This document shows positions 31,667-47,198 of a stretch of 64,000 nucleotides of DNA, piece by piece. This stretch comes from Candidatus Latescibacterota bacterium (GTDB lineage Bacteria > Latescibacterota > UBA2968 > GCA-2709665): contig OZ242180.1 of NCBI GenBank assembly GCA_965205485.1, positions 3,936,001-4,000,000 of the forward strand, given 5' to 3'. A program made the position numbers and the translations under genes. How positions within the stretch are numbered: position 1 is the first letter of the stretch; every line of letters begins with the position of its first letter. The notes under the pieces are model-generated. The model saw only the letters and a list, made by a program, of their open reading frames with translations. It was not told the DNA's origin and made no database searches.

Positions 31667-34369
31667 TCACATCGAAACGCCCAGCAGCCCTCGAGTGAAC
31701 TGAAAATCCGTGTTTTTCTGTCTCATCGCGACGGTCGTATAGTTACGAGACGCGGTTTCCAGGAGAAGCTCGGCGATCCGCCGGGCGTTTTTCTCAGGCG
31801 CGCCGGATAGCGAAAGGTCCAGGTCGTCCGCGTAGGCCTCGCACACCCACGGCTCCGTGCTGATCTGAAGCACGGGCAGCATCGGATGCCCCTGCATCGG
31901 ATGTTCGGCCACGTGCGCGATCAGGATCTGCGCGCCCGTGCCGCCAAGGCCGGTAAGCGTCTCGACCCAGTGGTCCGTCTGCGTTTCCATAATGTAGAAA
32001 CCCGGGCGCTTTGCCGTCTGGCCGTACCCGAGGGAGGGTCCCGGTGCTGCATTCGTCAGCAAGGTATCGGAAAACGGAGCCGAGGAGAGCAGCGCCGAGT
32101 TGTCCGGCGCCACGACCCTTGCGCCAGCGCCCACGAGCCGGCGGACGAGGATCGCAAACGACGCCGAGGCTGCGTCATTGACCCTGCCCCCGGTCAGGAT
32201 GCCGACCGACAGCGCCGCCGGATCGGACTCTCCGTAAACCGGCGGACGATCTCGTTTCATGCGTCCGGCGAACCAGGTTTCCACGTTGCGAAGCGCGCGT
32301 TCGAGCCCTCCATCGAGCTGGATGCTGCACCACCCGAAGCGGGCGGGGTCGATGCCTTCGCGTTCAAGTTGGTGCCTGAGATAGTCGTTGTGGGTTTTTT
32401 CACAACCGTGTTCCAGCAGCAGCGCGTGCCTTACCAGGGGGTGGGTGAGATAGCCGAGCATGGTTCGGGAATACATCTTCTCGGTCGCGTCGCCCGCCAC
32501 ACCGCAGCCCTCGGTATGTACGAGTGCGACGAACCGTGAGATACCCCGGCCTTTTCCGACCTCGTTCCGCTCCAGGCGTTCTGCGGCCATCCTTGCGATC
32601 TGGCCCGCGCAGAGGCTGGTCGGCAGGATCAGGCCGACCTGGTCCGTGGCGATGCCCGTCGCGGTCACGATGCCGCGGAATTCGCCTCGCAGCGCATCAT
32701 GTCTTGTGCACGTGTCCATGGGCTTCCCGGAGGGCAACGGGAGCGCCCGGAGACCTTCGACGTTGCCAGGGTCGGTCTGTCGCCAGTTCCGCCAGATGGA
32801 TATCTGGGAGTGTCCCGCCCGTTCGCCTTTGCTCCTTATGCCGGAAGCGACGTCAACCGTGAGATCCGTCATCCGCATCCCAAGCGTGTCCAGCGGAGTT
32901 CCGTCCAGATAGGCGCCCGCATTGACGTCCATTTCGTTCTCGAGGAGTTCGTACCGGCTCGTCGTCGTAATGACCTTCAGGGTGGGAACGAAGGGAAAAT
33001 TGGTGATGGAGCCGTTACCGGTTATGAAGAAAATCAGGTTACATCCCGACGCGACCTGTCCGGCAATGCTCTCAAGATCGTTCCCGGGACTGTCCATGAA
33101 GTAAAATCCGGGTTCGTGCATGGGTTCGCCGTACTCCAGGACCCCGTCGAGGCGAACCTGCGGATGGCGCTTCATGGCTGCGCCGATGGATTTCAGCACG
33201 ATGTTGTAGATGCCCCGGAACTTGTTGCCCCCTGAAGGATTGCCTTCGGCGGTCGCTCCATGACACGCCGCGAAATCCTTGTAGGCTTCCACGCGGTCCA
33301 GAAAGCGGCGGGCCGTATTGAGATCCTTGACGTTCTGCAAAACGTAGGGTTCCGCGCCAATCAGCTCGTCCGTTTCCGCCAGATTTGCCGAGCCGCCGTG
33401 CCGGATGATCTGACGCGCGACCCATGACGCCAGCGGGTTACCCGACACACCGGAAAAGGCGTCCGATCCCCCGCATTGCAGCGCGATCTTGAGACCGGAA
33501 ACGGAAGAATGTCTTCGGGCTGTCCGGTTGACTTCCGGCAGCCACCCCGCGACGACGTCCCGTGCCCGGTCGAGGTTATCTTCAAAACCGCCGCGCAGGG
33601 TTAGAAAGCGGTGGGGGACGTCGAAGAGGGGAGCGTTGTTTTCCGACATGTATGCGTGCAGCATGGCATTTGTCAGCGGCTCCGTACCGTAGTCGACCGC
33701 AAGGGCGGCGCCCACGTTGGGGTGTACCATAAAACCCGCAAGTGTTCTCAGAAGATGGTCAAGGTTGTTTGGCGTGGTCCGCCCGCCTCCTTCGGTGTGC
33801 GCGACGGCAACGATTCCGTCAATGTTTGGATAGGCGTCGGAAGCACCGTCCAATTGTCGTTCCAATCGCTTTACGAAGCTTCCCGTACGGGACGTGGTGC
33901 CCAGGATCAGGACATAGTTCCGGGTACCAACCCCCCTCGCGGCGCACCGGGCGTATCCTTCGAAGGTACGGATTCCCTTGACCGGAGGGACCTGATCGCC
34001 GGGGCGGAACGAATCCTCATTCAAACGGTAGGGCTGGATGTGGTCTCTGAAATTGGGTTCGACCGGCAGTTGAAAGTCCAGGTTGCGGAGGCTGAGCGCT
34101 TCCAGCATGCCGGCATTACAGACATAGTCGCCCGGGGAAATGTCCCTCGATGCGACGCCGAACGGAAGATTCCAGGAAAGGAGGGACTCGCCGGCGTGAA
34201 TGGGCGCCACGGCAAACCGGTGGCCCTCGAGTATGGCCGTATCCAGGCGAAGAACAGGGCCGTGGGTGCGGAAACGGACGCCCGCCTCCAGATTCCGCGT
34301 CGCGATGGCGACGTTGTCACCGGGTTGCGGCAGTCTGGCGACGTCCTCAAAGTCGAATATTTCCGACAT
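31667..34369 (-). CDS. UxaA/GarD-family (altronate/galactarate) dehydratase, long internally duplicated form
   Basis: N-terminal SAF (DNVAIA), GVGTRNY, LQCGGSDAFSG, GNPSGGN, FITGNGS; second HTEGCG...HGCEK block; RBS aaggag before ATG 34369. Confidence 0.85.
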   Translation of the reverse strand: MSEIFDFEDVARLPQPGDNVAIATRNLEAGVRFRTHGPVLRLDTAILEGHRFAVAPIHAGESLLSWNLPFGVASRDISPGDYVCNAGMLEALSLRNLDFQLPVEPNFRDHIQPYRLNEDSFRPGDQVPPVKGIRTFEGYARCAARGVGTRNYVLILGTTSRTGSFVKRLERQLDGASDAYPNIDGIVAVAHTEGGGRTTPNNLDHLLRTLAGFMVHPNVGAALAVDYGTEPLTNAMLHAYMSENNAPLFDVPHRFLTLRGGFEDNLDRARDVVAGWLPEVNRTARRHSSVSGLKIALQCGGSDAFSGVSGNPLASWVARQIIRHGGSANLAETDELIGAEPYVLQNVKDLNTARRFLDRVEAYKDFAACHGATAEGNPSGGNKFRGIYNIVLKSIGAAMKRHPQVRLDGVLEYGEPMHEPGFYFMDSPGNDLESIAGQVASGCNLIFFITGNGSITNFPFVPTLKVITTTSRYELLENEMDVNAGAYLDGTPLDTLGMRMTDLTVDVASGIRSKGERAGHSQISIWRNWRQTDPGNVEGLRALPLPSGKPMDTCTRHDALRGEFRGIVTATGIATDQVGLILPTSLCAGQIARMAAERLERNEVGKGRGISRFVALVHTEGCGVAGDATEKMYSRTMLGYLTHPLVRHALLLEHGCEKTHNDYLRHQLEREGIDPARFGWCSIQLDGGLERALRNVETWFAGRMKRDRPPVYGESDPAALSVGILTGGRVNDAASASFAILVRRLVGAGARVVAPDNSALLSSAPFSDTLLTNAAPGPSLGYGQTAKRPGFYIMETQTDHWVETLTGLGGTGAQILIAHVAEHPMQGHPMLPVLQISTEPWVCEAYADDLDLSLSGAPEKNARRIAELLLETASRNYTTVAMRQKNTDFQFTRGLLGVSM

Positions 34370-34494
34370 TGACAGACTCCTTGAAGTGTATCTCGCCTCG
34401 CTTTCATGGCGGCACGGTTCCGGGAGGTATACGAAATTGGTGACCAAAAGTCAAGCAGCGACGCCGTCGACGCCGGATTGTCGGCAAATTTCGC

Positions 34495-34553
34495 TTGACA
34501 TGGCGCCTGCTTGTTGATTAAATTTATAACGTATGTTTTATTTGTAAAACATA
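34495..34553 (+). promoter_or_regulatory. Promoter plus palindromic operator of Feo operon 1
   Basis: TTGACA 34495-34500, -10-like TTAAAT/TAAATT at 17-18 bp spacing, then perfect inverted repeat TATGTTTTA-TTTG-TAAAACATA (34532-34553). Confidence 0.7.
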
Positions 34554-34567
34554 TGACTGGTTCAGAA

Positions 34568-34786
34568 GCCTGAGAAGTTGTTTTAAATTACCGGTGGGTT
34601 CCCGAGCACGAGCGAAAAAGTGCCGGTTATGAGGCGCGAGGGGCGCGCAGCGCCGACGGGAAAATCCGGCTATGAGAGGCGAGCAAGCGCAGCCTCGATC
34701 TCTTAAGACGGGTGGATTTAACCAACGCCGACCGGCGCTTTTGCAGCCGTGCGAAGACCGCTGGGAATTTTAAGACAGCTTCTGAA
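34568..34786. mobile_element. MITE-like non-autonomous element, full copy
   Basis: ~23-bp terminal inverted repeats (TGAGAAGTTGTTTTAAATTACC / GGGAATTTTAAGACAGCTTCTGA), inner inverted repeat, no ORF; second copy at 51531. Confidence 0.75.
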
Positions 34787-34802
34787 GGTGGAAGGGGGAC
34801 CC

Positions 34803-35333
34803 GTGGCATCTTCCGATGTGTGGAAAACATTCGAAGAAAATGAGATCACGCACAGCGTCGCACATCACCTTCTCGCCATAAGAGAGCTCAAGGACCAGTA
34901 CGGATACGCCCGCGTGTCGGATGTCGCAAGATATCTGGACATTACGAGGGGCAGCGCGTCGCTGACATTAAAGGCGCTCCGACAGAAACAGTTCGTTCTG
35001 GAAGATCAGAACAAGTTCCTGCGGCTTTCCGAACGAGGTGCGCGATTAGTGGATCTGGTACTCGCCAAGCGCGCCATCGTTCGCAAATTCCTTAAGGACG
35101 TGCTGCACGTGGAAGGCCACCAGTCGGAAGTGGACGCGTGCAAGGTGGAACACCTGTTGAGCGAGGAAACCGGCGAGAAGCTGTTGAATTTCGTGAGATT
35201 CCTGCTGGCCGATACGCCGGTGGCAAGGGAGTTTCTGAACGCGTTCTGGCAGACCGGCGACTTCTGTCACGACGAGACCGATTGTCCGATCTGCGAAGAC
35301 GAGTGTCTTCTCAGAATCGGTGCCGGAGGTTAG
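34803..35333 (+). CDS. DtxR/MntR-family metal-dependent repressor with C-terminal Cys4 tail
   Basis: ARVSDVARYLDITRGSAS HTH, DACKVEH metal site, tail CHDETDCPICEDEC; GTG start 34803 (the longer track start lies inside the MITE). Confidence 0.88.
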   Translation: MASSDVWKTFEENEITHSVAHHLLAIRELKDQYGYARVSDVARYLDITRGSASLTLKALRQKQFVLEDQNKFLRLSERGARLVDLVLAKRAIVRKFLKDVLHVEGHQSEVDACKVEHLLSEETGEKLLNFVRFLLADTPVAREFLNAFWQTGDFCHDETDCPICEDECLLRIGAGG

Positions 35334-35360
35334 TCTCGCGGCGAAAAAAAGGATGGCAAA

Positions 35361-35663
35361 ATGGTGGCGCGCCTCATGCAACTGGCCGCTCGTGGCGTTT
35401 GGCTTTCAAATGAACGGAAGAACCGGACCAGGAAGATGTTCCGGGGATCGCTGGCCGGACTCGATGTGGGTGACGAAGGAACGGTGGAATCGGTGCAGGG
35501 GAATTCCCCCCTGGCCTCCCGGCTGCGGGAATTGGGAGTTGGTCCGGGTGTCAGGGTTCGATTGCTGCGCGCAGGTGGACGTTTGGTCGTGCAGGTTGAA
35601 GATGCCCGGTTCTGTTTGAGGATGCACGATGCGGTTGCCGTTAGGCTGAGTCCGATCACCTGA
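35361..35663 (+). CDS. feoA: FeoA protein
   Basis: L..L..G..GTV...RLRELGVGPGVRV...FCLR...A..V; directly before feoB; start could be 35436. Confidence 0.85.
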   Translation: MVARLMQLAARGVWLSNERKNRTRKMFRGSLAGLDVGDEGTVESVQGNSPLASRLRELGVGPGVRVRLLRAGGRLVVQVEDARFCLRMHDAVAVRLSPIT

Positions 35664-35673
35664 GGTTCAACGC

Positions 35674-37908
35674 ATGGCCACGGAGTTGTCCGATGGACCG
35701 CGCACCGGCGTAGATCAGCGCTTTACAATCGCTCTGGTGGGTAATCCAAATACCGGTAAGACCACGCTTTTTAACGGTCTTACCGGTCTTTTTCAGCATG
35801 TCGGGAATTACCCCGGCGTGACCGTTGAGCGAAAAGTGGGGCGGCTGAGTTTGTCCGAAGACACGATCGCGGAGCTCGTCGACCTGCCGGGTACCTACAG
35901 TCTTGCCGCCCATGCCCCGGATGAGATGATCGTCGCCGACGTATTGCTCGGACGGCTGCCCCGCGAACGGGGAATAGACGCGGTACTGGCAATTGTCGAC
36001 GCATCGAATCTATACAGGAACCTTTACCTGGTTTCACAGGTGCTCGAACTCGGCCTGCCGGCAGTGGTTGCGCTGAATATGTCGGACGTGGCGGATGCAC
36101 GGGGCATACGCATCGATATTGAAACGCTCTCACGTTATCTGAGGGTTCCTGTGGTCAGGGTCTGTGCGAATCGACGACAGGGACTGGGAGACCTGCGCCG
36201 GGAATTGAGACGCCTGCCGCATGACGGGCGGCATCAGGGCTTATCGCTGCTGCCGGGATTTCCCGACGGATTTCCCGCTGCAGTCGATGCGGTCGCGTCG
36301 GAGTTGCAGTCGCAAAATGCGAGAAACGCGTCCGTGCGACGCGCAGAGGCGTTGAGGGCGATCGTCGACGAAGGAGGTTACGCGGAACGCCGGCTGATTG
36401 AGGCACGCGGTGACGATCTCCGGATGAAACTCGCGGATGCCAGGGGCAGGTTTTCCGCGGCATCAGGTTTGTCCGCTCTTGAATCGGAGGTGAGGTACAA
36501 CTGGATAAGGCGGGTGCTTGCGCAAAGTGTATCTCAACCTGAGGACCTGCAGAAAACGCATTCGGACCGCATCGACGGAGTAATTACGCACAGGATCTGG
36601 GGTACGCTCCTGTTCGTCGCTATAATGGGCGTGGTCTTCCAGGCCATCTATGCCTGGGCCGGCCCGCTGATGGATTGGGTTGATGATCTGTTCGCCGTGC
36701 TGTCCGGCTGGGTGGGCGGCTGGTTTCCGGAAGGGGCGCTGAAAAGCCTGGTTCAGGACGGCGTTATAGCGGGCGTGGGCGGTGTTGTCATTTTCTTGCC
36801 TCAGATCGCTATTCTCTTTTTCTTCATCGCTGTTCTGGAAGACTGCGGCTATATGGCCCGTGCGGCCCTGCTGATGGACAGGATCCTCACAAAGTGCGGT
36901 CTTTCCGGGCAGTCGTTTATCCCGATGTTGTCAAGCTTCGCGTGCGCGGTGCCTGGAATCATGGCGACACGGACCATTGAAGGCCGGCGGAACCGGCTGG
37001 TCACCATTATGGTGGCGCCGCTGATGAGTTGTTCTGCCCGATTGCCGGTCTACACCATCCTGATCGCCGCGTTTATCCCGGCGAGACCCATACTGGGGGA
37101 GTGGATTGGTCTGCAGGGGCTGACCCTTTTTGCGATGTACTGCGTGGGCGCGGCAGTTGCGGTTCCCGTGGCCTGGGTACTCAGGAAGACCCTGTTGAAG
37201 GGGGAAACAACCCCTTTCATTCTGGAGCTCCCATCGTATAAGGTACCGGACAAACGGACGGTCGGACTGAGGGTATATCAGAGTTCCAGGGCGTTTCTGG
37301 CGCGTGCGGGAAGTATCATCCTGGCTGCAACGATCGCGATGTGGGCGCTTGCTTACTTTCCCAGATCGGAAGAGACCCTTTCGGAATACGAACGCCATCG
37401 GCGAACGGCCGAAGCATCGCAGTCGGGCGTGGCGTTGCAGGAGACGCTGGAGGACCTTAACGCGCGGATGGCGGCGGAACTCCTCAATGAGAGTTTTCTG
37501 GGCCGGGCAGGACACTGGATAGAACCTGCGGTCAGACCGCTGGGCTGGGACTGGCGTATCGGAATGGCCACGCTCGCGTCCTTTCCCGCAAGGGAGGTGA
37601 TCATCGCGACACTTGGCACAATCTACAGCCTGGGCGGCGATACGGACGAGTCGTCGGACGACCTGCGCAGCGCGCTTCGCAACGCGACATGGGATGATGG
37701 ACGCTCCGTTTTCAATATCCCCGTCGCACTCTCGGTAATGGTCTTTTTCGCGCTGTGCGCGCAATGTGCATCGACGCTGGCCGTCATTCGCCGGGAGACG
37801 CAGTCCTGGAGATGGACGATTTTTACGTTTGTCTATATGACGCTATTGGCGTACGTCGCCGCGCTGGCGACCTATCAGGGCACGATGGCTCTGGGATGGG
37901 GGGGTTAG
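35674..37908 (+). CDS. feoB: Ferrous iron transporter FeoB (full length)
   Basis: G1 GNPNTGKT, VGNYPGVTVE, DLPG, NMSD; gate motifs LEDCGYMAR, FACAVP, MSCSARLPVY, CAQCASTL. Confidence 0.96.
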   Translation: MATELSDGPRTGVDQRFTIALVGNPNTGKTTLFNGLTGLFQHVGNYPGVTVERKVGRLSLSEDTIAELVDLPGTYSLAAHAPDEMIVADVLLGRLPRERGIDAVLAIVDASNLYRNLYLVSQVLELGLPAVVALNMSDVADARGIRIDIETLSRYLRVPVVRVCANRRQGLGDLRRELRRLPHDGRHQGLSLLPGFPDGFPAAVDAVASELQSQNARNASVRRAEALRAIVDEGGYAERRLIEARGDDLRMKLADARGRFSAASGLSALESEVRYNWIRRVLAQSVSQPEDLQKTHSDRIDGVITHRIWGTLLFVAIMGVVFQAIYAWAGPLMDWVDDLFAVLSGWVGGWFPEGALKSLVQDGVIAGVGGVVIFLPQIAILFFFIAVLEDCGYMARAALLMDRILTKCGLSGQSFIPMLSSFACAVPGIMATRTIEGRRNRLVTIMVAPLMSCSARLPVYTILIAAFIPARPILGEWIGLQGLTLFAMYCVGAAVAVPVAWVLRKTLLKGETTPFILELPSYKVPDKRTVGLRVYQSSRAFLARAGSIILAATIAMWALAYFPRSEETLSEYERHRRTAEASQSGVALQETLEDLNARMAAELLNESFLGRAGHWIEPAVRPLGWDWRIGMATLASFPAREVIIATLGTIYSLGGDTDESSDDLRSALRNATWDDGRSVFNIPVALSVMVFFALCAQCASTLAVIRRETQSWRWTIFTFVYMTLLAYVAALATYQGTMALGWGG

Positions 37909-37909
37909 C

Positions 37910-38089
37910 GTGGATTGGCAGTCGGTAGTGGCGGTCGGCGTCGCGATCGCCTGTGGCATCTGGGCGGCATGGAAGTTCGTCCGTCCGTTCCTGACGGAAT
38001 CCGTCGGTTGCGCCTCGTGCGGAGGCGGACGCCGCCGTGATGCTTCGCAAAAATCACTCCTCGACATCGAAAAGCCGCCTTCGGCATGA
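37910..38089 (+). CDS. FeoB-associated Cys-rich small membrane protein (59 aa, absent from ORF track)
   Basis: GTG 1 nt after the feoB stop; MDWQSVVAVGVAIACGIWAAWKFVRPFLTESVGCASCGGG...; one TM helix then CxxC. Confidence 0.8.
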   Translation: MDWQSVVAVGVAIACGIWAAWKFVRPFLTESVGCASCGGGRRRDASQKSLLDIEKPPSA

Positions 38090-38305
38090 ACGTGGCTGCA
38101 TTTCGATCGAATTGACAACCCGCTGACCCGGAATCAACAGGGGCGCGGGTTTTTCTGTAGGCGGACGAGAAAATGCTTGCGCTCTCGTTGGAAATACCTT
38201 AATCTCATTTGCCGCTCAGGATCCGGTTCCCGTGTTGCCGGACGGTTTCGTATGCCCTTTTCGGGAAGGAATCGCGCGCTCGTCATAAAAAAGGGGGAGT
38301 ACATA

Positions 38306-38872
38306 GTGCGTTTTGTTCTTACGACTTCGATCGGCATCATCATCGGCATCTCTTTGTCCCATGCGCCTTCGGTCGATGCCAAAACGAAAAAGCTGGATGA
38401 CAAATCCCTCGCGATGGCCAAGCAGCTTGCCAAAGACCGGGAAGCGGCATTCTCCGGCGAAAGAGCCATGCCGCTGAACGAATTCCACCAGGGGTGGAAA
38501 CTGCTTGCGGCGCGCCTTGACGAATTGTATGCCGGCCACAAGGTGCGGGTCAACAAGGTAGGCGCTCACGTCCGGTTCAGGATGGGTTTCAGCCACCTGG
38601 CCTATATGGGCTTGAAGGTACACACCCGCGTCACGCCGCTGAGCCCTTCGCCGGGCGAACTGGTGGCAGGTTATCCCTTTCTTCAGGAATTGGTATTGGA
38701 CGGCAGTTTCTATCCGGACGGACAGAGATTTCCCCTGAAGATGAAGGAACTGCTTCAGGTTGAGCCGCAGATGGTTGCGGCGCTTCGTGAGTCCATCGAC
38801 GGTTGGGAAGAAAAATACCGGGAGCGGTTTGTAAAGGATTATCCCGTTAAATCGGCGAAAAAGATGGAGTGA
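38306..38872 (+). CDS. Exported hypothetical protein
   Basis: GTG start with RBS gggggag, signal peptide ending ...SVDA; own promoter-like TTGCGC-N17-TAATCT upstream and a terminator downstream. Confidence 0.65.
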   Translation: MRFVLTTSIGIIIGISLSHAPSVDAKTKKLDDKSLAMAKQLAKDREAAFSGERAMPLNEFHQGWKLLAARLDELYAGHKVRVNKVGAHVRFRMGFSHLAYMGLKVHTRVTPLSPSPGELVAGYPFLQELVLDGSFYPDGQRFPLKMKELLQVEPQMVAALRESIDGWEEKYRERFVKDYPVKSAKKME

Positions 38873-38903
38873 ATCTGAGACCCCATTTCGGATTAATCTA
38901 TTT

Positions 38904-38938
38904 AAAGAGGCGACACCGTTTTCGGCGTCGCCTCTTTT
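38904..38938 (+). terminator. Intrinsic terminator
   Basis: AAAGAGGCGACACCG-TTTT-CGGCGTCGCCTCTTTT. Confidence 0.75.
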
Positions 38939-39039
38939 GTCGTACTGATCGTACAGTCGGGACGGCATGGCGTTCGTTGCGCGCCTCTATCCGGATGCGG
39001 GCGCCGGCGCAATCCCGGTCTGCGGAACGGGAAGGACGT

Positions 39040-40146
39040 TCAAGGTACCAGCTCCGGCCTCACCTCCCGGTTCAGCGCCGGCATCAATTCTGTCGCGAAG
39101 AGTTCGAGACTGCGCAGCCAACTGTCTTTGTCGTCCCAGTCGTACGACATCATGACGAGCGTGCCGAAGTCTCCGACTTCCGCACGCAGGGACTCGAGAC
39201 GATCGACGACCGCGTCGACGTCGCCGGCGATGATCTGTTCGCCCATCAGATAATCCAGATTACAGTCCGCATCGGGCATATCAGGGTCGCGTTTGAACAT
39301 GCCGATGCCGCGGCCGCCGCGTTTGAGAAGTGAGCCGATGTATTCGAAGTTCGTTGCGACGGTATTTGATCTCGCACGCCGTACCGCTTCTTCCGTGGTA
39401 TCCGCCAGGAAGATCGCGCGTGCAATCTTGTAGTCGGAACGGTCCGGCCGTCGACCTGCCTCCATGGCAGACTGCTCGAATGTCGTCCAGATGTTCGCCA
39501 ATGTGCTCGATGGAATCAGGCTGTGACCGAACGGTTGGAAGCCGCGCCTCCCCGCCTCCCTTGCGGTTTCGGAGTTTATCGAACTGATCGGCATTGAAAT
39601 GGGCGGATGGGGTCGTTGGTATGGCTTGTGAATGACGCCGAGGCCGACCTCCGGATCGATCGTGCGTTCCAGCCTGATCTGCCAGAACCGGCCATCGATT
39701 GCGAAAGGCGCGTCGGATTGCCAGAGCGTCAGGATCATCTCGATCGATTCGGCGACCATTGCGGCGCTGTTCTGCGGGTCGACACCGAGGATCTCAAGGT
39801 CGGTCGGAACGCTGCCGGGTCCGAAACAGAGATTGAGTCGCCCCCTGGACAGGTGGTCGAGAAAGGACAGCCGGCTTGCGACCAGCGCGGGGTGGTGTTG
39901 CTGCAGGCAGACCGGTGCCGGCCCCAGCCGAATATTGCCGGTTTCCCGCAGCGCCGCCCCGATGAATATCTCCGGCATCGCGATGTTTTCGTAGACCATG
40001 GTGTGATGTTCGCCGATCCAGAATTCGTCGATACCCAGTTCGTCGGCACGAATGACGAGTTCCATGTCTTCATCGTGGCATTGACTGAGCGATTTTCCCG
40101 GCGGGTGGAACGGCATGATGAAGATGCCGGACTTGATTCGATTCAT
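39040..40146 (-). CDS. LLM-class (luciferase-like) flavin-dependent monooxygenase
   Basis: FIMPFHPP, WIGEHH, LDHLSRGR, KPYQRPHPPI, SLELFATELMP. Confidence 0.9.
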   Translation of the reverse strand: MNRIKSGIFIMPFHPPGKSLSQCHDEDMELVIRADELGIDEFWIGEHHTMVYENIAMPEIFIGAALRETGNIRLGPAPVCLQQHHPALVASRLSFLDHLSRGRLNLCFGPGSVPTDLEILGVDPQNSAAMVAESIEMILTLWQSDAPFAIDGRFWQIRLERTIDPEVGLGVIHKPYQRPHPPISMPISSINSETAREAGRRGFQPFGHSLIPSSTLANIWTTFEQSAMEAGRRPDRSDYKIARAIFLADTTEEAVRRARSNTVATNFEYIGSLLKRGGRGIGMFKRDPDMPDADCNLDYLMGEQIIAGDVDAVVDRLESLRAEVGDFGTLVMMSYDWDDKDSWLRSLELFATELMPALNREVRPELVP

Positions 40147-40518
40147 GGGCGCAGCCTTTCAGTATTTTAGGATTCATTACCCCTTGGAAGTCTCCGCGCC
40201 GGGCATCGGCGGTACATCGCGTTTGATCCGTTACGTAACAACCGTTGGCATTTTTCAGGCGTAGCCGCCAGGGTCATAAACGGCAGTCCGTGGTTCCTCA
40301 ATCCGGCGAATCTGACGAAATATCGACCTATCTTCCGGGTTGCGCAACGCCTTTCTTGTTACGGTCGGAGGTGGCGCCACAGATCCGGAGGTCAGCGTAA
40401 CGGTCGCAACGCTCCAGAATGGACTCAGGACGCGCAGGAGAGGATTGCGGAATCACCCGTCTAGCGATTGTATGGATTGGCATACCCACCCACCGGGGCT
40501 TCGAGAGCTGTTTTGTAC

Positions 40519-40564
40519 TTGACAATCGGGGCAGACCACTTTAAGTTTAGATACGCCTAAATTT
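40519..40564 (+). promoter_or_regulatory. Promoter plus DtxR/MntR/SirR-type operator of Feo operon 2
   Basis: TTGACA-N17-TAAGTT; palindrome AAGTTTAG-ATACGC-CTAAATTT (40543-40564) overlapping the -10. Confidence 0.78.
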
Positions 40565-40607
40565 TTTTTTATCTTTGGATAATCGGTATTGGCAGAAGGA
40601 AAACCGG

Positions 40608-41633
40608 ATGATCGAACCCGTGAGAGCGCTTCTGGGCGCAGCCGTGATTCTGGGTTGCGCGTGGTTTCTTATCCGGCCGGGCTCGGGATATTTCTGGCGG
40701 TGGCGGCAGGCCCGGAGGCTGACCGAGCGCGTCCTGACGGAAGATTTGCTCAAGCACGTATATAACTGTGAATATCAACAGCAGATCGCAACGGTCGAAA
40801 GCCTGTCCGGCGCACTGGGGATTCCGCTCGGCCGCGCGTCCGATCTGATCGTACGTGCGGGTGTCCGCGGACTGACCGTTTCTGACGGCGGCAGCGTCAG
40901 ACTGACAACGCACGGTCGGGATTACGCGCTTCGAATCCTGAGGGTTCACCGCCTCTGGGAACACTATCTGGCCGAGGAAACAGGGGTGGCGGCTGCCGAT
41001 TGGCACAGCGAGGCGGAACGCCGGGAGCACGATCTGTCTACCGAGGACGTGGAACGGCTGGACCGGAGGATGGGGTATCCGGTCTACGACCCGCACGGGG
41101 ACCCCATACCCACCGGCGCCGGAGACATCGCGCCGAAACGCGGAACGCACCTGACGGAACACACCGTCGGCGTTGCGGCGGAGATTGTACACATCGAAGA
41201 CGAACCGGAGCCCGTGTACGCGCAGCTTGCGGCGGAAGGACTTCACGTCGGGATGCGAATCGAGTTGATCGAGGTTCTGCCCCAGCGCGTGCGCTTCTGG
41301 GCGGATGGAGAAGAGCATGTGCTGGCGCCGTTGCTGGCCGACCATATTTCCGTCACCGCAGTTTCGAATGGATCTGAAGCAGAAGCGTCCGATGAACTGC
41401 TGTCCGGCCTGAGAAAGGGCGAAGTCGGGCACGTTGTCCGACTGTCCGGATCATGCCGCGGTCTGGAACGGCGTCGGCTGATGGATCTGGGAATCCTTCC
41501 CGGTACCCGGATCCAGGTGGAGATGCGCAGCCCTTCCGGGGATCCAACCGCATACCGGATACGTGGGACAACCATTGCGCTTCGAAGGGAGCAGGCAGAT
41601 CAGGTTCAGATTCAGGTGCAACTCGTGGAATGA
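40608..41633 (+). CDS. Membrane-anchored DtxR-family protein with two FeoA domains
   Basis: N-terminal TM helix plus WRWRQARR; EDLLK, HRLWEHYL, HSEAERREH, DPHGDPIP; two C-terminal FeoA/SH3-like domains (second: RRLMDLGILPG...SPSGDP..Y.IRG..IALR). Confidence 0.88.
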   Translation: MIEPVRALLGAAVILGCAWFLIRPGSGYFWRWRQARRLTERVLTEDLLKHVYNCEYQQQIATVESLSGALGIPLGRASDLIVRAGVRGLTVSDGGSVRLTTHGRDYALRILRVHRLWEHYLAEETGVAAADWHSEAERREHDLSTEDVERLDRRMGYPVYDPHGDPIPTGAGDIAPKRGTHLTEHTVGVAAEIVHIEDEPEPVYAQLAAEGLHVGMRIELIEVLPQRVRFWADGEEHVLAPLLADHISVTAVSNGSEAEASDELLSGLRKGEVGHVVRLSGSCRGLERRRLMDLGILPGTRIQVEMRSPSGDPTAYRIRGTTIALRREQADQVQIQVQLVE

Positions 41634-41675
41634 ACGGCCGTCACAATGCATACGGAATCGGATGGAGCGTATAGA

Positions 41676-42485
41676 ATGGAAATGCAGACACCAGCTGGTC
41701 CTTGCGACGCCTGCCCGGCGCATCATTCGGGCAACCTGATCAAGCTCGGCGTGAATATGGCGAATTGGGATTTCGTCGTGGCACTGGCAGGAAATCCGAA
41801 TACAGGGAAGAGTACGGTATTTAACGCCCTGACGGGACTGCGGCAGCATACAGGGAACTGGCCCGGAAAAACGGTGGTGCGGGCCGAAGGCGGTTTCGCG
41901 TTCGGAGGCCACCGGTATAAGCTCGTGGATCTTCCGGGAACCTACTCTCTCCTGTCCACCAGTCTCGACGAAGAGGTCGCCCGGGATTTTATTCTGTTCG
42001 GACGCCCGGACGTAACGGTGGTTGTCGTGGACGCCGCGCGGCTGGAACGGAATCTGAATCTCGTCCTTCAGGTTCTGGAAATTACCGACCGTGCGGTGGT
42101 GTGCCTGAACCTGATAGACGAAGCGAAACGCCAGGGTCTACGGGTGGACGAACGACGACTGTCACGAGATCTGGGGGTCCCGGTGGTGCCTGCGGCGGCG
42201 CGCCGGGGGGAGGGAATGCCTGAGTTGACGCAGGTATTGAGTGATGTGGCGACCGGCAGGACGGTATGCAGGCCGCAACGCATCAAAAACGAGCCGCCTG
42301 AATTGAGAAAGGCGGTAAACAAGCTCATGGCTCAGCTGGATCAGGCGTTTCCCGATGTACCGAACTCGCGGTGGGTGGCGCTCCGGCTGCTCGAAGGTGA
42401 CACGCGAATTATGGAAGCAGTGAGTTCGGGAGAACTCGGGGATCTGAACCGTAATCCGGCGCAGGGAGAGGAGGTCACGGCGTGA
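41676..42485 (+). CDS. feoB: FeoB N-terminal GTPase domain as a separate protein
   Basis: [27 protein letters not shown], plus helical GDI domain; N-terminal CDACPAHH; alternative start 41646. Confidence 0.88.
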
Positions 42486-43918
42486 GTGATTCCGCGGCAA
42501 ATCAACGCCCCGACGAATTGATTCGATTGGCGGCGGAGCTTCGATGGGAAGCGGGGTCCAATTTCCACGATTCATTAATGGAAACGCTCTACGCAAACGC
42601 AGCGCATATTGCTGACCGCGCTGTCACCCGAACCGGTGAAGCCGCACGGTTCGATCTGGACCGGACGATCGACCGGCTCGTAACCAGTCGCTGGCTGGGT
42701 TTCCCCATCATGTTATTCCTGCTGACGCTGGTATTCTGGCTGACGATTGAGGGCGCGAATCTGCCTTCGGCGATGCTGGCGGGCCTGCTGATCGACTCCG
42801 TTCATCCTGTATTGAAATCCGTGGCCGTGGCAGTCGGCATGCCCTGGTGGCTCGACGGCCTGCTCGTTGACGGCATCTACCTGGCAATGGCGTGGGTCGT
42901 CAGTGTCATGTTGCCACCCATGGCGATCTTCTTTCCGCTGTTTACGCTACTGGAGGACTTCGGATATCTGCCCAGGGTCGCGTTCAATCTTGACAAGTGG
43001 TTCAAAAAAGCAGGCGCGCACGGGAAGCAGGCGCTCACGATGAGTATGGGATTTGGTTGCAATGCCGCGGCGATCGTGTCCACCCGGGTCATAGACAGTC
43101 CCAGAGAGCGACTCATTGCCATCATTACCAACAATTTCTCTCTCTGCAACGGACGGTGGCCCACCCAGATACTGGTGGCTACGATATTCATCGGAGGACT
43201 GGCTCCGGCCCATTTCGCCGGACTGGTTTCCGCCGGTGCAGTAGTGGCCGTCGCCGTATTTGGCGTTCTGCTCTCCTTTTTCGTCTCGTGGGGCCTCTCC
43301 AGGTCGGTTCTCCGGGGAGAAGCATCCGCCTTCAGCCTGGAACTTCCGCCGTATCGACCCCCTCGGGTCTTGCAGACCGTCTATACTTCAATTATTGACA
43401 GAACGTTGATTGTGCTGTGGCGGGCGGTGATCTTTGCGGTTCCCGCGGGCGCGGTGATCTGGCTGAGTTCCAATATCATGGTTGGGGGGCTCAGCGTCGC
43501 GGAGCATTTCATCAACTGGAGCCAGCCGTTCGGTCTGCTTATCGGATTGAATGGCGTCATCCTGCTGGCCTACGTAATCGCAATCCCGGCGAACGAAATT
43601 GTGATTCCCACCATACTGATGTTGACGGTATTGAGTGCAAGGATGACCGGGCTGGGTGAAGGCGCCGGGGTCATGTTTGAACTGGACTCCAATGCCGCGG
43701 TAGCGCAGATTTTCGCTTCCGGCGGATGGAGTCTGCTCACTGCCGTCAATTTGATGTTGTTCAGCCTGGTGCACAATCCGTGTTCTACCACGATATATAC
43801 GATCTGGAAGGAAACACGAAGCGCCAAATGGACGTCCATTTCGTCGTTACTTCCCGTGGGAATGGGTTTCCTGCTCTGTTTTCTCGTTGCACAGATCTGG
43901 CGTTTGGTATCAGGGTGA
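42482..43918 (+). CDS. feoB: FeoB membrane (gate) domain as a separate protein
   Basis: [49 protein letters not shown] overlap with own RBS ggagaggagg. Confidence 0.88.
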
Positions 43919-44015
43919 GGCGATTTCCGGTTTCGGCTGGTGTTCGTGGAAGACGGTTCCCGGATGTCAATGCCGGTTCAGGAATCCGCGCAGGATTGCC
44001 AGCGAAAGGAAACAC

Positions 44016-44690
44016 ATGCTCAGTCAGGCCGCACAGGACTATCTGAAGTCCATCTACAAGCTTCAACATGGGCACGAACCCAGGGCCACCGTGAATACAT
44101 CGATGGTTGCGGAGCGGATGGAGGTGGCGGCAGCGTCCGCGACAAATATGATCAAGAAGCTGGCTGAAATGAACCTTGTTCAGCACACACCCTATCAGGG
44201 CGTCGAACTCACGCCGGCGGGAGAAGCCGTCGCCCTGGAGGTCCTGAGACATCACCGCCTGCTCGAGCTGTACCTGGCGGACGCATTGGGGTACGACTGG
44301 GACGAAGTCGACGCTGAGGCCGACAGACTCGAGCACGTGATTTCGGAAGAGTTCGAGGACAAAATCGACAGGGTGCTCGGCCATCCCACAACCGACCCGC
44401 ACGGGGCGCCGATTCCCACAAAAGACGGAAATATCGAAAACACGGATTGCGTCCCTCTCACGCAGGTGGAGCCCGGGGAGGCGGTCGTGATCGCACAGGT
44501 GAACGACCAGAGTCCCGAGATGCTCAGGTATCTGGGGGCGCTTGGACTGCGGCCGGGCGTCACGCTGTTCGTTCAGGAGAAGGCGCCGTTCAATGGCCCG
44601 ATGACCATCGAACTTGATGGAAACACCCAGCATGTGGTGGGTGTCAACGTGTCGGACAGCATCTACGTGACGTGCGCCGACGAAGGTTGA
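44016..44690 (+). CDS. DtxR/SirR/MntR-family soluble metal-dependent repressor
   Basis: QDYLKSIY, ASATNMIKKL, RHHRLLELYL, AEADRLEH, DPHGAPIP, one FeoA domain; RBS aaagga. Confidence 0.93.
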   Translation: MLSQAAQDYLKSIYKLQHGHEPRATVNTSMVAERMEVAAASATNMIKKLAEMNLVQHTPYQGVELTPAGEAVALEVLRHHRLLELYLADALGYDWDEVDAEADRLEHVISEEFEDKIDRVLGHPTTDPHGAPIPTKDGNIENTDCVPLTQVEPGEAVVIAQVNDQSPEMLRYLGALGLRPGVTLFVQEKAPFNGPMTIELDGNTQHVVGVNVSDSIYVTCADEG

Positions 44691-44765
44691 TGGACTCCGC
44701 CGCGGCGGGACGGCCGCCGTTCAGTCCCGCGTCGATGTCAGGCCGTATACAGGTTGAATAAACTT

Positions 44766-47198
44766 ATGAATTCGCCAACTCGTGTCTTCATCGTCTCCTT
44801 TCTCTTGGGCGGGGTTCAGGCAAGCGCCGGGACGCCGCCCGATCTGTCTCCGGTTCCGCGTGAAACGGAGGTCGAGCTCTTCAACCGCGCGGCTGCGGTA
44901 TTCAGGCCCGATCTGCTGCCGGCGGACAGCCCATACTTCCACGAGCATGCGGTTTGCGGAACACCCGTCATTATGGCCCTGGCCACCCGGTGGCCCAGTC
45001 TGAGCAAGAATACGCAACAGGCGTTCGCCCATGTGTTTCAGCGCCCCGCAATGACGGACAGTATGGTATCTGCAGGCGGGCATTTCCGTGTCCACTACGA
45101 TACGAGGGGCCGGCATTCCGTTTCGCCGGACGACGCCGACCGGAACCGGGTGCCCGACTACGTCGAGGAAGTCGCGGCCACGTTCGACGCCGTGTGGACG
45201 CTTCAGGTCCGCAACCTGGGGTACCGGGATCCGCTGGACGACGGCGACGGCTTGTTCGATGTGTACATCCAGCAACTGGGCACGGCCGGCGTGTACGGGC
45301 AAACCTGGCCCACACGTCTCGGTAATCCGGTAACGTCAGCCTATCTGACGGTCGACAACGACTATACAGACCGGATTTACGCGACCCGGGGTCTGGACGG
45401 CCTGCACGTGACCGTCGCGCACGAGTTCTTCCATGCCATACAATTCGCGTACAATGCGCGAGCCTTGACGTGGTGGCACGAGGCCACCGCGACCTGGATG
45501 GAAGATGTGGCGTACGACGATGTGAACGACTATTTCCAGTACACAAGGTTCGTTCTGGATTCACCCACCGTTGCCCTGGACTGGCAGCCCAATCTGCAGG
45601 ACGGACACCAGTACGGAGCATGCATCTACGTCCATTACCTGGACCAGGTCTTCGGACGACGGACCATTCGGGAGACGTGGGAGGGACTGGGCGAGCGCAA
45701 CACGTCGTCGTACGATATCGAAAAACTGAATCCGACGGTGCCCACCGGTGGTTTTTCAGGGACGCTGCCGGGTTACGTCACCTGGAATTATTTCACCGGG
45801 ACCCGCTCTCGTGACGGGTTTTACGAAGAGGGCGTGTTTTATCAGCCCGCTGCCTCGGTCAGAACGGTTTCGACGGTTTCCGGCGGCCAGGCATCCGGTA
45901 CCGGATCGGTGGATCATCTGGCTGCCGACTATATCCAGGTGGTGACGAAGGGGATGCAGGGCGGCCTTCGAGCCGAATTCGGTCTGGCCGGCGGGGGAAG
46001 CTGGCAATTCTGGGCCATGCTGATTGATACCGATGGGGTCGACCTGCTGCGGCCGGTCCGCTCCAGGATGGAGATCCCGAACGCGGGACAATACGACAAT
46101 ATCGTGTTTATGCCCGTATCGGACGCGCTGGAAGGGCGGGATTTCGATTACGAATATACGATTGCCTCGGCCGAATCAGTAGACGGGGAGACCCATCCAC
46201 TCAGGTTGACGGTTGGCGAAAGCAATGTTCCCGTGGTACGACTCGGCGTACATTCAGACCGGGCGACCGTTCGCGCGGACGGCGCCGGAGGGAATCCGGT
46301 CGCGTGGACCGTTTCTCGCGCCAGCGGCAGCAGGGCGATCACCGTGCCCGGACAAGCGGAGCCATCGTCATTCACGACGCTGGCGGATTCGATTGAAATC
46401 GTGGCGGTTGGCACCGGCCCGACCGTCGTTCAGGTTTCCGCCACCGGGGCAGGCACGACGCCGTCCGTCGCCTGGGCGGTCTTCGGTCAGACCCTCACGG
46501 GGAATCTGCCGCCCGTGGTGGCGGCGATTTCCGATACCACCATAGCAGAAGGGCAGCAGTTGTCGATTCTCATCGATGCGGAAGACGAAGATGGCGACGC
46601 ACTCGCCTTTTCGTCCGGCGACCTCCCGGCCGGGGCCACCCTGGTTGAGAATCGCTTAACCTGGACGCCGCGGTTCGATCAGGGCGACCGGACTTACGAG
46701 ATTCAACTGCTGGTCAGCGACGGCATCAACCAGGTACGCATCGGGGTGAACATACACGTGAAGAATGTCGACCGTCCGCCGGAGATTCGGGAGACCGACC
46801 CGACCCGCGGGGTCGTGTATGGCGCCTCGGGGAAGACGGTTCGATTTTCAGTGACGGCGCTGGATCCGGACGGGGATGAATTGAGCTTCGCATGGTCGAT
46901 CAACGGCATTTCAGTGGATGAAGCGGGGCCGTCCCTGCTCGTGACGATTCCCGCCACGGATGTGGATGACGTGGTCGAGGTCGTGGTAACTGCGGGGCAG
47001 AAATCAGTCAAACGGAAATGGACGATCGGGAAGACGTTGATCGGAGATTTCAACGACGACGGCGCCGTCAACTTTGCCGACTTTATTGCCTTCGCCGGTG
47101 CTTTCGGCACGGAGAGTCCGATACACGACCTCGACGGTTCGGGGCTCGTCGATTTTCAGGATTTCCTCGTTTTTGCGATCTATTTCGGCCTGCCGTGA
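44766..47198 (+). CDS. Secreted putative zinc metalloprotease (MXAN_6640-like) with Ig-like repeats and C-terminal dockerin/EF-hand-like tail
   Basis: Signal peptide, HFRVHY, AHEFFHAIQ (HExxH), WWHEATATWME, N.PP...D.DGD.L.F cadherin/Ig repeats, GDFNDDG.VNF.DF...DLDGSG.VDF.DF. Confidence 0.78.
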   Translation: MNSPTRVFIVSFLLGGVQASAGTPPDLSPVPRETEVELFNRAAAVFRPDLLPADSPYFHEHAVCGTPVIMALATRWPSLSKNTQQAFAHVFQRPAMTDSMVSAGGHFRVHYDTRGRHSVSPDDADRNRVPDYVEEVAATFDAVWTLQVRNLGYRDPLDDGDGLFDVYIQQLGTAGVYGQTWPTRLGNPVTSAYLTVDNDYTDRIYATRGLDGLHVTVAHEFFHAIQFAYNARALTWWHEATATWMEDVAYDDVNDYFQYTRFVLDSPTVALDWQPNLQDGHQYGACIYVHYLDQVFGRRTIRETWEGLGERNTSSYDIEKLNPTVPTGGFSGTLPGYVTWNYFTGTRSRDGFYEEGVFYQPAASVRTVSTVSGGQASGTGSVDHLAADYIQVVTKGMQGGLRAEFGLAGGGSWQFWAMLIDTDGVDLLRPVRSRMEIPNAGQYDNIVFMPVSDALEGRDFDYEYTIASAESVDGETHPLRLTVGESNVPVVRLGVHSDRATVRADGAGGNPVAWTVSRASGSRAITVPGQAEPSSFTTLADSIEIVAVGTGPTVVQVSATGAGTTPSVAWAVFGQTLTGNLPPVVAAISDTTIAEGQQLSILIDAEDEDGDALAFSSGDLPAGATLVENRLTWTPRFDQGDRTYEIQLLVSDGINQVRIGVNIHVKNVDRPPEIRETDPTRGVVYGASGKTVRFSVTALDPDGDELSFAWSINGISVDEAGPSLLVTIPATDVDDVVEVVVTAGQKSVKRKWTIGKTLIGDFNDDGAVNFADFIAFAGAFGTESPIHDLDGSGLVDFQDFLVFAIYFGLP

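Follow-up and report, generated by a model that had tools for sequence, protein, structure and literature searches.

Why would an operon for a metal transporter encode two proteins of the DtxR family, one soluble and one apparently tethered to the membrane? The question is raised by a stretch of 64,000 nucleotides from a Candidatus Latescibacterota bacterium (assembly GCA_965205485.1, contig OZ242180.1, positions 3,936,001 to 4,000,000), referred to in full as the window. Here, an open reading frame (ORF) at 40608–41633 (+), which we call gene A, encodes a DtxR-like protein of 341 residues with two FeoA domains. The operon runs from a promoter/operator region (40519–40561) through gene A, feoB-N (41646–42485) and feoB-C (42482–43918) to a soluble mntR (44016–44690). 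The original prediction held that gene A derives from a repressor turned into a membrane-bound metal sensor. Sequence comparison reveals an N-terminal anchor helix, a full set of metal ligands, a degenerate recognition helix and wing, a true second FeoA domain, a position ahead of an FB2-clade feoB and an operator box. Because the metal ligands are kept, the DNA contacts are lost and the protein carries the operon's only true FeoA, it is likely an anchored FeoB subunit. We consider it probable that the gene A protein acts mainly on the transporter. The fuller proposal, that it is anchored in the membrane as part of a FeoB that probably imports Mn2+, and that Mn2+ binding to the core would plausibly switch transport down, has in our judgement an even chance of being right.

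A DtxR-like protein with a predicted anchor and two FeoA domains

The gene A protein has a single hydrophobic stretch at residues 4–22 (40617–40673 (+); Kyte-Doolittle 19-mer score 1.96, every other segment at or below 1.3). WRWRQARR follows, and a W/F-P-x-x-G motif and a basic helix come after the stretch. Net charge is −0.9 before the helix and +4.3 after it, and in 118/118 close homologues the charge is likewise negative before and higher, positive, after. AxA and lipobox patterns, in our own definitions, occur at none of these 118 N-termini (0 and 0), which disfavours a cleavable signal peptide or a lipoprotein. Hydropathy and charge are consistent with an uncleaved signal anchor, predicted to lie N-out/C-in. 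Taking a Kyte-Doolittle 19-mer score of at least 1.6 near the N-terminus as an anchor, we found the helix in 118 of the 120 best homologues and, after clustering at 50% identity, in 126 of the 147 representatives that could be scored (three of the set of 150 were dropped as partial); it is absent from 4 of 70 complete GTDB copies. The start codon ATG 40608 is conserved in genus-level relatives (among 20 loci) and an upstream TTG at 40575 is not, so ATG 40608 is taken as the start. The predicted N-terminal helix with its positive flank was borne out.

Pfam recognises Fe_dep_repr_C (PF02742) at residues 100–169 with 83.8 bits, plus two FeoA stretches. The DtxR DNA-binding domain PF01325 has no match in gene A, but does match the soluble gene at 44016–44690; in the wider gene A family it matches 2 of 37 members at E ≤ 0.01. 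An AlphaFold model (predicted local distance difference test score 86.5) has a winged-helix fold and a DtxR core, and Foldseek matched it to 5zr6 (TMt 0.91). The winged helix spans residues 45–99 (40740–40904 (+)) and, as judged from AlphaFold, Foldseek and conservation, has an intact core and lacks its DNA-contact residues. The metal-binding and dimerisation domain follows at residues 100–169 (40905–41114 (+)).

The two FeoA stretches differ in kind. FeoA1 (41145–41363 (+)) is the ancillary SH3-like domain of DtxR proteins, with a near-invariant H195-x-E-D198-E-P motif; phmmer against the PDB returned nothing for it at E ≤ 1. FeoA2 (41400–41615 (+)) is a true FeoA with RRRLxDLG and ALR motifs and an NF007106 match at residues 288–336. 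Its PDB matches are all FeoA proteins, including the FeoA domain of Bacteroides fragilis FeoAB (7r7b, E 5e-11), and the SH3-like FeoA signature RRxLxxLG...P.GDP...LR is present in FeoA2 only. In copies beside FeoB, R288, R290, D293, G295 and R326 are 100% conserved. The comparison thus supports FeoA2 as the FeoA of this operon, as had been proposed, and gene A likely supplies it at the membrane. The accompanying claim that there is no standalone feoA holds for this operon; one does exist 5 kb upstream, at 35361–35663, in a separate canonical feo operon.

The metal site is kept and the DNA-contact surface is degenerate

We aligned 69 members of the gene A family with 42 soluble paralogs taken from the same loci. 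Identity in the dimer domain is equal (0.56 versus 0.56), and over the recognition helix and wing it is 0.24 in the gene A family versus 0.44 in the soluble paralogs. A five-residue contact score combined the DNA contacts Tyr12, Arg46, Lys47 and Tyr59 of the MntR repressor DR2539 with T/S43. Scores of at least 3 were reached by 0/69 family members versus 42/42 soluble paralogs, a comparison that is partly circular because the fifth position was chosen from the soluble set, and by 1 of the 147 distant representatives; the window protein scores 2/5. The mean net charge of the helix-turn-helix (HTH) is −0.7 in the gene A family versus +2.3, and the hydrophobic core positions of the winged helix are conserved as strongly as in repressors. 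The suspected degeneration of the recognition helix is therefore confirmed.

All 11 primary and ancillary ligands of DR2539 are present in gene A, at 78–100% conservation in the 69 homologues, in agreement with the predicted retention of DtxR metal-binding motifs. The primary ligands are D46, E137, E140 and H141 and the ancillary ones H114, E118, H133, D161, H163, D165 and D198; D46 is contributed by helix 1 and D198 by FeoA1, the others by the domain at residues 100–169. H195, E197 and E199 are additionally conserved at 96–100% in the gene A family and missing from the soluble paralogs. Within the genus (11 sequences, window included), the ratio of non-synonymous to synonymous substitution rates (dN/dS) is lowest in FeoA1 (0.04), followed by the dimer domain (0.10) and then the helix and wing (0.21). 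By this measure, constraint on the helix and wing is relaxed, not neutral.

Gene A is genomically coupled to an FB2-type FeoB

Among the best 80 of 601 GTDB loci, 75 encode a gene A-type twin-FeoA protein, and wherever these have a FeoB G domain on the contig (72/72), it lies immediately downstream of gene A. Record titles of gene A loci name Acidobacteriota, Chloroflexota, Bacteroidota, Ignavibacteria, Gemmatimonadota, Verrucomicrobiota, Calditrichaceae and Actinomycetota. A reciprocal search with the FeoB C-half, whose split-type query biases the set toward split FeoB, found gene A upstream in 63 of 80 metagenome loci; the other 17 reach the contig end first.

Both FeoB halves are 61% identical to a 725-residue FB2-like FeoB (locus L208), which is itself 29.5% identical to the window's other FeoB. 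According to PMC4805248, FB2 is the only characterised Mn transporter of Porphyromonas gingivalis, and PMC12094164 likewise gives it a role in Mn transport. From FB2 orthology, the DR2539-type box described below and the acidic ligands, we infer that the window FeoB is a probable Mn2+ importer.

The N-half (41646–42485 (+), FeoB_N and FeoB_Cyto; true start possibly ATG 41676 or 41682) contains a CxxCPxH extension, the G domain and the first part of the helical GDP-dissociation-inhibitor (GDI) region. The C-half (42482–43918 (+)) holds the remainder of the helical region and the Gate and FeoB_C membrane domains. The two overlap at GTGA, behind GGAGG. An assembly error was rejected, since the overlapping stop-start junction recurs in 20/20 loci (19 relatives and the window) and an independent contig spans the split without any difference. 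The halves meet at about positions 216–219 of the NF007105 model, within the GDI region. The "detached GTPase" of the original prediction is thus not supported: the cut does not fall between GTPase and membrane part, and the GDI helices would bring the halves back together. The supposed tie between anchor and split also fails. Of 114 anchored copies with a scorable FeoB, 80 precede a split and 34 a fused one, and split FeoB of the FB2-type clade also stands beside plain FeoA (Actinomycetospora L072, Cytobacillus L236), so that anchor and split are independent; the split itself is probably a neutral feature. Fused FeoB of this clade is found beside plain FeoA in Clostridium, and plain FeoA occupies the place of gene A in L072, L235 and L236.

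The CxxC(PxH) extension before G1 (41703–41723), possibly a metal or Fe-S site, occurs in 117/133 FB2-clade FeoB copies linked to the gene A family and is absent from L210, L211, L235, L236, L238 and several fused copies. Its presence in L072, with plain FeoA, led us to reject it as specific to the family. Structure prediction of the full gene A protein with FeoB-N, GTP and Mg, FeoB-C being left out, scored 0.00 with the controls not folded, and counts neither way. Two apparent natural DtxR-FeoB fusions (P0121, P0122) were discarded, as their FeoA2 is garbled and they look like frameshifts; P0124, a single cluster, joins a DtxR protein with canonical HTH to a TonB receptor.

The operator suits the soluble paralog

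A candidate sigma-70 promoter (40519–40547 (+)) consists of TTGACA at 40519–40524, a 17-nt spacer and a weak −10 element, TAAGTT, at 40542–40547. A consensus promoter scanner made no call at 40519–40547, because the −10 matches the consensus at three of six positions; TTGAC(A) with TATATT/TAAATT-like −10 elements is also found upstream of the operon in relatives. Overlapping the −10 is the operator TTTAG-ATACGC-CTAAA (40546–40561, no strand assigned), an instance of the DR2539 site TTTAG-N6-CTAAA (bioRxiv 2024.02.12.579695). It is the only exact site in the 5.1-Mb genome, where 0.05 would be expected. With up to one mismatch, the box lies upstream of 65/119 homologous operons versus 80/2280 random windows. 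The operator is invariant, whereas the recognition helix of the gene A protein varies. An Rfam search of 33000–46000 gave no match.

The last gene of the operon encodes a soluble three-domain MntR (44016–44690 (+); PF01325, PF02742 and FeoA), whose best PDB relatives are 5zr4 and 8pvt (DR2539). Its DNA-contact residues, mapped by alignment to 8pvt, are canonical (Y9, A38–A40, T43, K47, K48, Y60). Both an operator ahead of the operon and a canonical repressor closing it had been predicted, and the two suit each other, DR2539-type box with DR2539-type contacts. By analogy with known families, the soluble MntR would likely repress the operon at 40546–40561 in Mn excess.

In two Bacteroidales pairs of loci, a DtxR protein with canonical HTH is fused to a FeoA2-like domain ahead of split FeoB (L089/L210 3242–4126; L090/L211 5379–6266), and these loci carry a TTAAG-N6-CTTAA box. 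The L089 and L090 proteins nest among soluble MntRs in the tree described below, which suggests a separate origin of this repressor-FeoA fusion.

The same module is fused to Nramp transporters

A search for longer relatives yielded P0123, an in-frame fusion of the gene A module to Nramp/MntH. The search that followed returned 134 hits, and all 120 of those listed carry Nramp, DtxR-C and FeoA (one is named from Anaerolineae). These proteins of about 760 residues have the order anchor-DtxR-FeoA-FeoA-Nramp (P0123, P0125–P0243; L241–L244, L246–L249). Among the 120, the N-terminal helix is kept in 114, though Nramp itself already anchors them, and DPGN in 119. Metal ligands are conserved at 94–100%, except E137, which is mostly Met, and a contact score of at least 3 is reached by none (0/120). 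The FeoA2 motif decays: R288 is down to 32%, and R290, D293 and R326 have each been displaced as the most frequent residue. In this natural experiment, read at the level of sequence, it is the metal core that accompanies transporters, and the FeoA2 surface persists only next to FeoB.

The fusion was found in 5/301 genomes sampled from one class. In these five, whose completeness is unknown, FB2-type FeoB was not found in four and another PF02742 gene not in three; one genome (G704) carries both a fusion and a FeoB-linked gene A copy. No TTTAG-N6-CTAAA box within two mismatches lies upstream of four fusion loci. The domains fold in an AlphaFold model without defined packing (pTM 0.48), and the post-helix charge statistic gave no information for this group. 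An Atlas search for the fusion returned nothing above 0.78, among clusters that are automatically named only. In L245 (744–2706), a canonical mntR stands directly before a stand-alone mntH; the latter shares 68% identity with the Nramp half of the fusions and is a possible source of that half.

A proposed mechanism

In B. fragilis, FeoA binds the GTP-loaded N-terminal domain of FeoB (NFeoB) and slows hydrolysis, and a signal not identified there was proposed to dislodge FeoA (PMC8980893). The DR2539 ancillary domain has been modelled docking on the core via Asp163 (bioRxiv 2024.02.12.579695), equivalent to D198 of gene A. Combining the two, the gene A protein, presumably a dimer like the MntR of P. 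gingivalis (PgMntR), would engage GTP-bound NFeoB through FeoA2 and keep uptake on. Mn2+ filling the ancillary site would let FeoA1 dock on the core, and in the simplest link, this docking would pull the attached FeoA2 off NFeoB and turn transport down. The soluble MntR would act on transcription of the same operon.

Several observations weigh against this proposal. The anchor is dispensable in part of the family: 21/147 representatives lack it, and just 2 of the 27 Porphyromonas-like proteins listed have it. Across the genus, purifying selection still acts on the winged helix, with an overall dN/dS of 0.12. The reported dissociation constant of PgMntR for Mn2+, 2e-11 M, is far tighter than the 2.6 µM of DR2539 and awkward for a feedback sensor. 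A PgMntR-like protein is the sole PF02742 protein in genome G350 and four congeneric genomes. Association between the box and a soluble MntR, scored in 33 of 35 loci, several being small metagenome-assembled genomes, is a trend that does not reach significance (Fisher p=0.11), and 3/21 operons have the box with no full-length soluble MntR found; a repressor encoded at another place in the genome was found for 25 of the 33 scored loci that lack one nearby. The strongest evidence against the proposal is a published electrophoretic mobility shift assay, in which PgMntR shifted its own promoter fragment, the more so with Mn2+, and left two control fragments unshifted (PMC4805248).

PgMntR and the alternative readings

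This assay bears directly on gene A, since PgMntR belongs to the same clade. A 310-residue protein in L104/L208 matches PgMntR in length and in 12/12 residue numbers given in PMC4805248; it is 36% identical to the gene A protein. We built a quick IQ-TREE phylogeny of the dimer and FeoA1 region, leaving out HTH and anchor (100 subsampled rows, 155 columns, unrooted; Shimodaira–Hasegawa-like approximate likelihood ratio test, SH-aLRT). Anchored, Porphyromonas-like and Nramp-fused rows fall on one side and 44 canonical-HTH rows on the other (SH-aLRT 99), with the PgMntR-like row placed inside the anchored group. The contrast with PgMntR in the original prediction was wrong in kind: PgMntR is no canonical repressor but an anchorless member of the same degenerate-HTH clade.

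The alternative that fares best, though we hold it unlikely, is a dual or tethered transcription factor, a FeoA supplier that also binds DNA through an altered surface. It would do so while still in the membrane or once freed by proteolysis, for which Chlamydia YtgCR sets a precedent (PMC5599777). Besides the specific, Mn-enhanced shift by PgMntR and its place as sole DtxR-family gene in five Porphyromonas-like genomes, the selection on the winged-helix fold and several HTH arginines kept in the Nramp-fused group speak for such a role. The published shift, however, needed 700–950 nM protein, persisted in 1 mM ethylenediaminetetraacetic acid and was lost without the basic FeoA2, and no in vivo repression test appears in the excerpts of PMC4805248. 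Scores of at least 3 are absent from the Porphyromonas-like proteins (0/27) as from the anchored family and the listed Nramp fusions, the L104 protein scores 0/5 with a shortened wing, the HTH has lost its positive charge, and G350 contains no exact TTTAG-N6-CTAAA site. In genome G352, and not in G350, the PgMntR-like gene has a divergent neighbour upstream (L209 3636–5093), which from its N-terminal sequence we take to resemble a catalase.

We regard as improbable, too, that the protein combines FeoA with a metal acceptor, the core taking or buffering Mn2+ at the transporter exit as a chaperone or store, with no shut-off. PgMntR is a metal-independent dimer that binds three Mn2+ per monomer with the affinity given above (PMC4805248), and the extra near-invariant H195, E197 and E199, the CxxC on most linked FeoB-N copies and the fusion of the module to a second importer type all fit an acceptor. 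Against it stands the full allosteric architecture, including the helix-1 ligand D46 (96%) that joins winged helix to core, which a simple acceptor would not need.

Least plausible, and in our view quite unlikely, is a vestigial scaffold, in which FeoA2 alone matters and the DtxR part survives from an old mntR-feoA fusion as metal-stabilised spacer and anchor: plain FeoA suffices for the FB2-type clade in Bacillota and Actinomycetospora, FeoA2 sits on a canonical repressor in L089 and L090, and FeoA2 removal destabilised PgMntR (PMC4805248), but the ligands are near-invariant across 150 clusters at 50% identity, FeoA1 has the lowest dN/dS and in Nramp fusions the metal core persists while the FeoA2 motif decays.

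Genomic neighbourhood

A second, canonical feo operon (34749–38089 (+)) lies 2.4 kb upstream of the gene A operon and is probably an Fe system. It comprises a short DtxR-like gene with a Cys-rich tail (34749–35333 (+)), the standalone feoA (35361–35663 (+)), a fused feoB (35674–37908 (+)) and a 59-residue hydrophobic peptide with CxxC (37910–38089 (+)); no TTTAG-N6-CTAAA box was found at it. A canonical feoAB next to an FB2-type operon also occurs in L167, L177, L182, L194 and L202. Between the two window operons, an ORF at 38177–38872 (+) has no Pfam match, and its probable true start near 38307 would give a signal-peptide-like N-terminus. A luciferase-like monooxygenase gene (39040–40146 (−)) is divergent from the gene A operon, and downstream lies a gene for a secreted Ig-domain protein with an HEFFH motif (44754–47198 (+)). 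Sponge metagenomes (runs X5–X9) contain 0.2–0.46 of sampled words, and X5 and X6 cover the stretch; no RNA data set was listed among those containing it.

Relation to known systems and implications

The closest characterised system is PgMntR (PG1044) with FB2 (FeoB2, PG1043), which shares the DtxR core and two FeoA domains before the same FeoB clade (PMC4805248). PgMntR differs from the window protein in having no transmembrane helix and Cys instead of Glu at 137, and in the P. gingivalis-type genome FeoB is fused while soluble MntR and box are both missing. PgMntR was published as a repressor, its degenerate HTH passing unremarked in the excerpts of PMC4805248. The MntR repressors DR2539 (8pvt, 8pw0; bioRxiv 2024.02.12.579695) and 5zr4/5zr6 share the fold (TMt about 0.9) and the primary and ancillary ligands. 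Gene A is set apart from them by its anchor, its second FeoA and the absence of counterparts to DR2539 Tyr12, Ala37-Pro38-Ala39, Arg46 and Tyr59; the operator that the window shares with DR2539 suits the soluble paralog. FeoA2 is a sequence relative of the B. fragilis FeoA domain, which is fused to FeoB there and to a metal-binding DtxR core and anchor here (PMC8980893; 7r7b). In Chlamydia YtgCR, too, a metal transporter system tethers a DtxR-family domain to the membrane, but YtgR is cleaved off and represses, whereas gene A lost the DNA contacts of an intact HTH and has FeoB or Nramp as partner (review PMC5599777). CorA, MgtE, MntS-MntP and FeoC-FeoB follow the same proposed logic, cytosolic metal controlling a transporter post-translationally, and none of the examples in the excerpts of a review of such systems (PMC10710835) uses a DtxR-derived module.

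The anchored form, the lost DNA surface and the Nramp fusion were not found in open PMC and bioRxiv full texts, a coverage mostly outside subscription journals, and the survey in PMC8980893 removed DtxR-FeoA fusions. The gene A family is a real, widespread and apparently undescribed variant of the PgMntR subfamily. More tentatively, and with rather less than an even prospect, a Mn repressor may have been converted into a portable anchored Mn2+ gate that was re-used in the Nramp fusions, PgMntR being really a transporter subunit.

The off-switch of FeoB is an explicit open question: the model in PMC8980893 has FeoA dislodged by a signal that it leaves open. With metal core and FeoA in one polypeptide, feedback becomes testable by point substitutions, and in the Nramp fusions transport and structure can be studied on a single chain. 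If true, our proposal would supply the missing off-switch between cytosolic metal and FeoA-FeoB and reassign PgMntR, the sole characterised member. A multi-phylum FB2-type Feo clade would then probably be specific for Mn, and possible transporter subunits would be found among thousands of database entries that now bear the name "metal-dependent transcriptional regulator".

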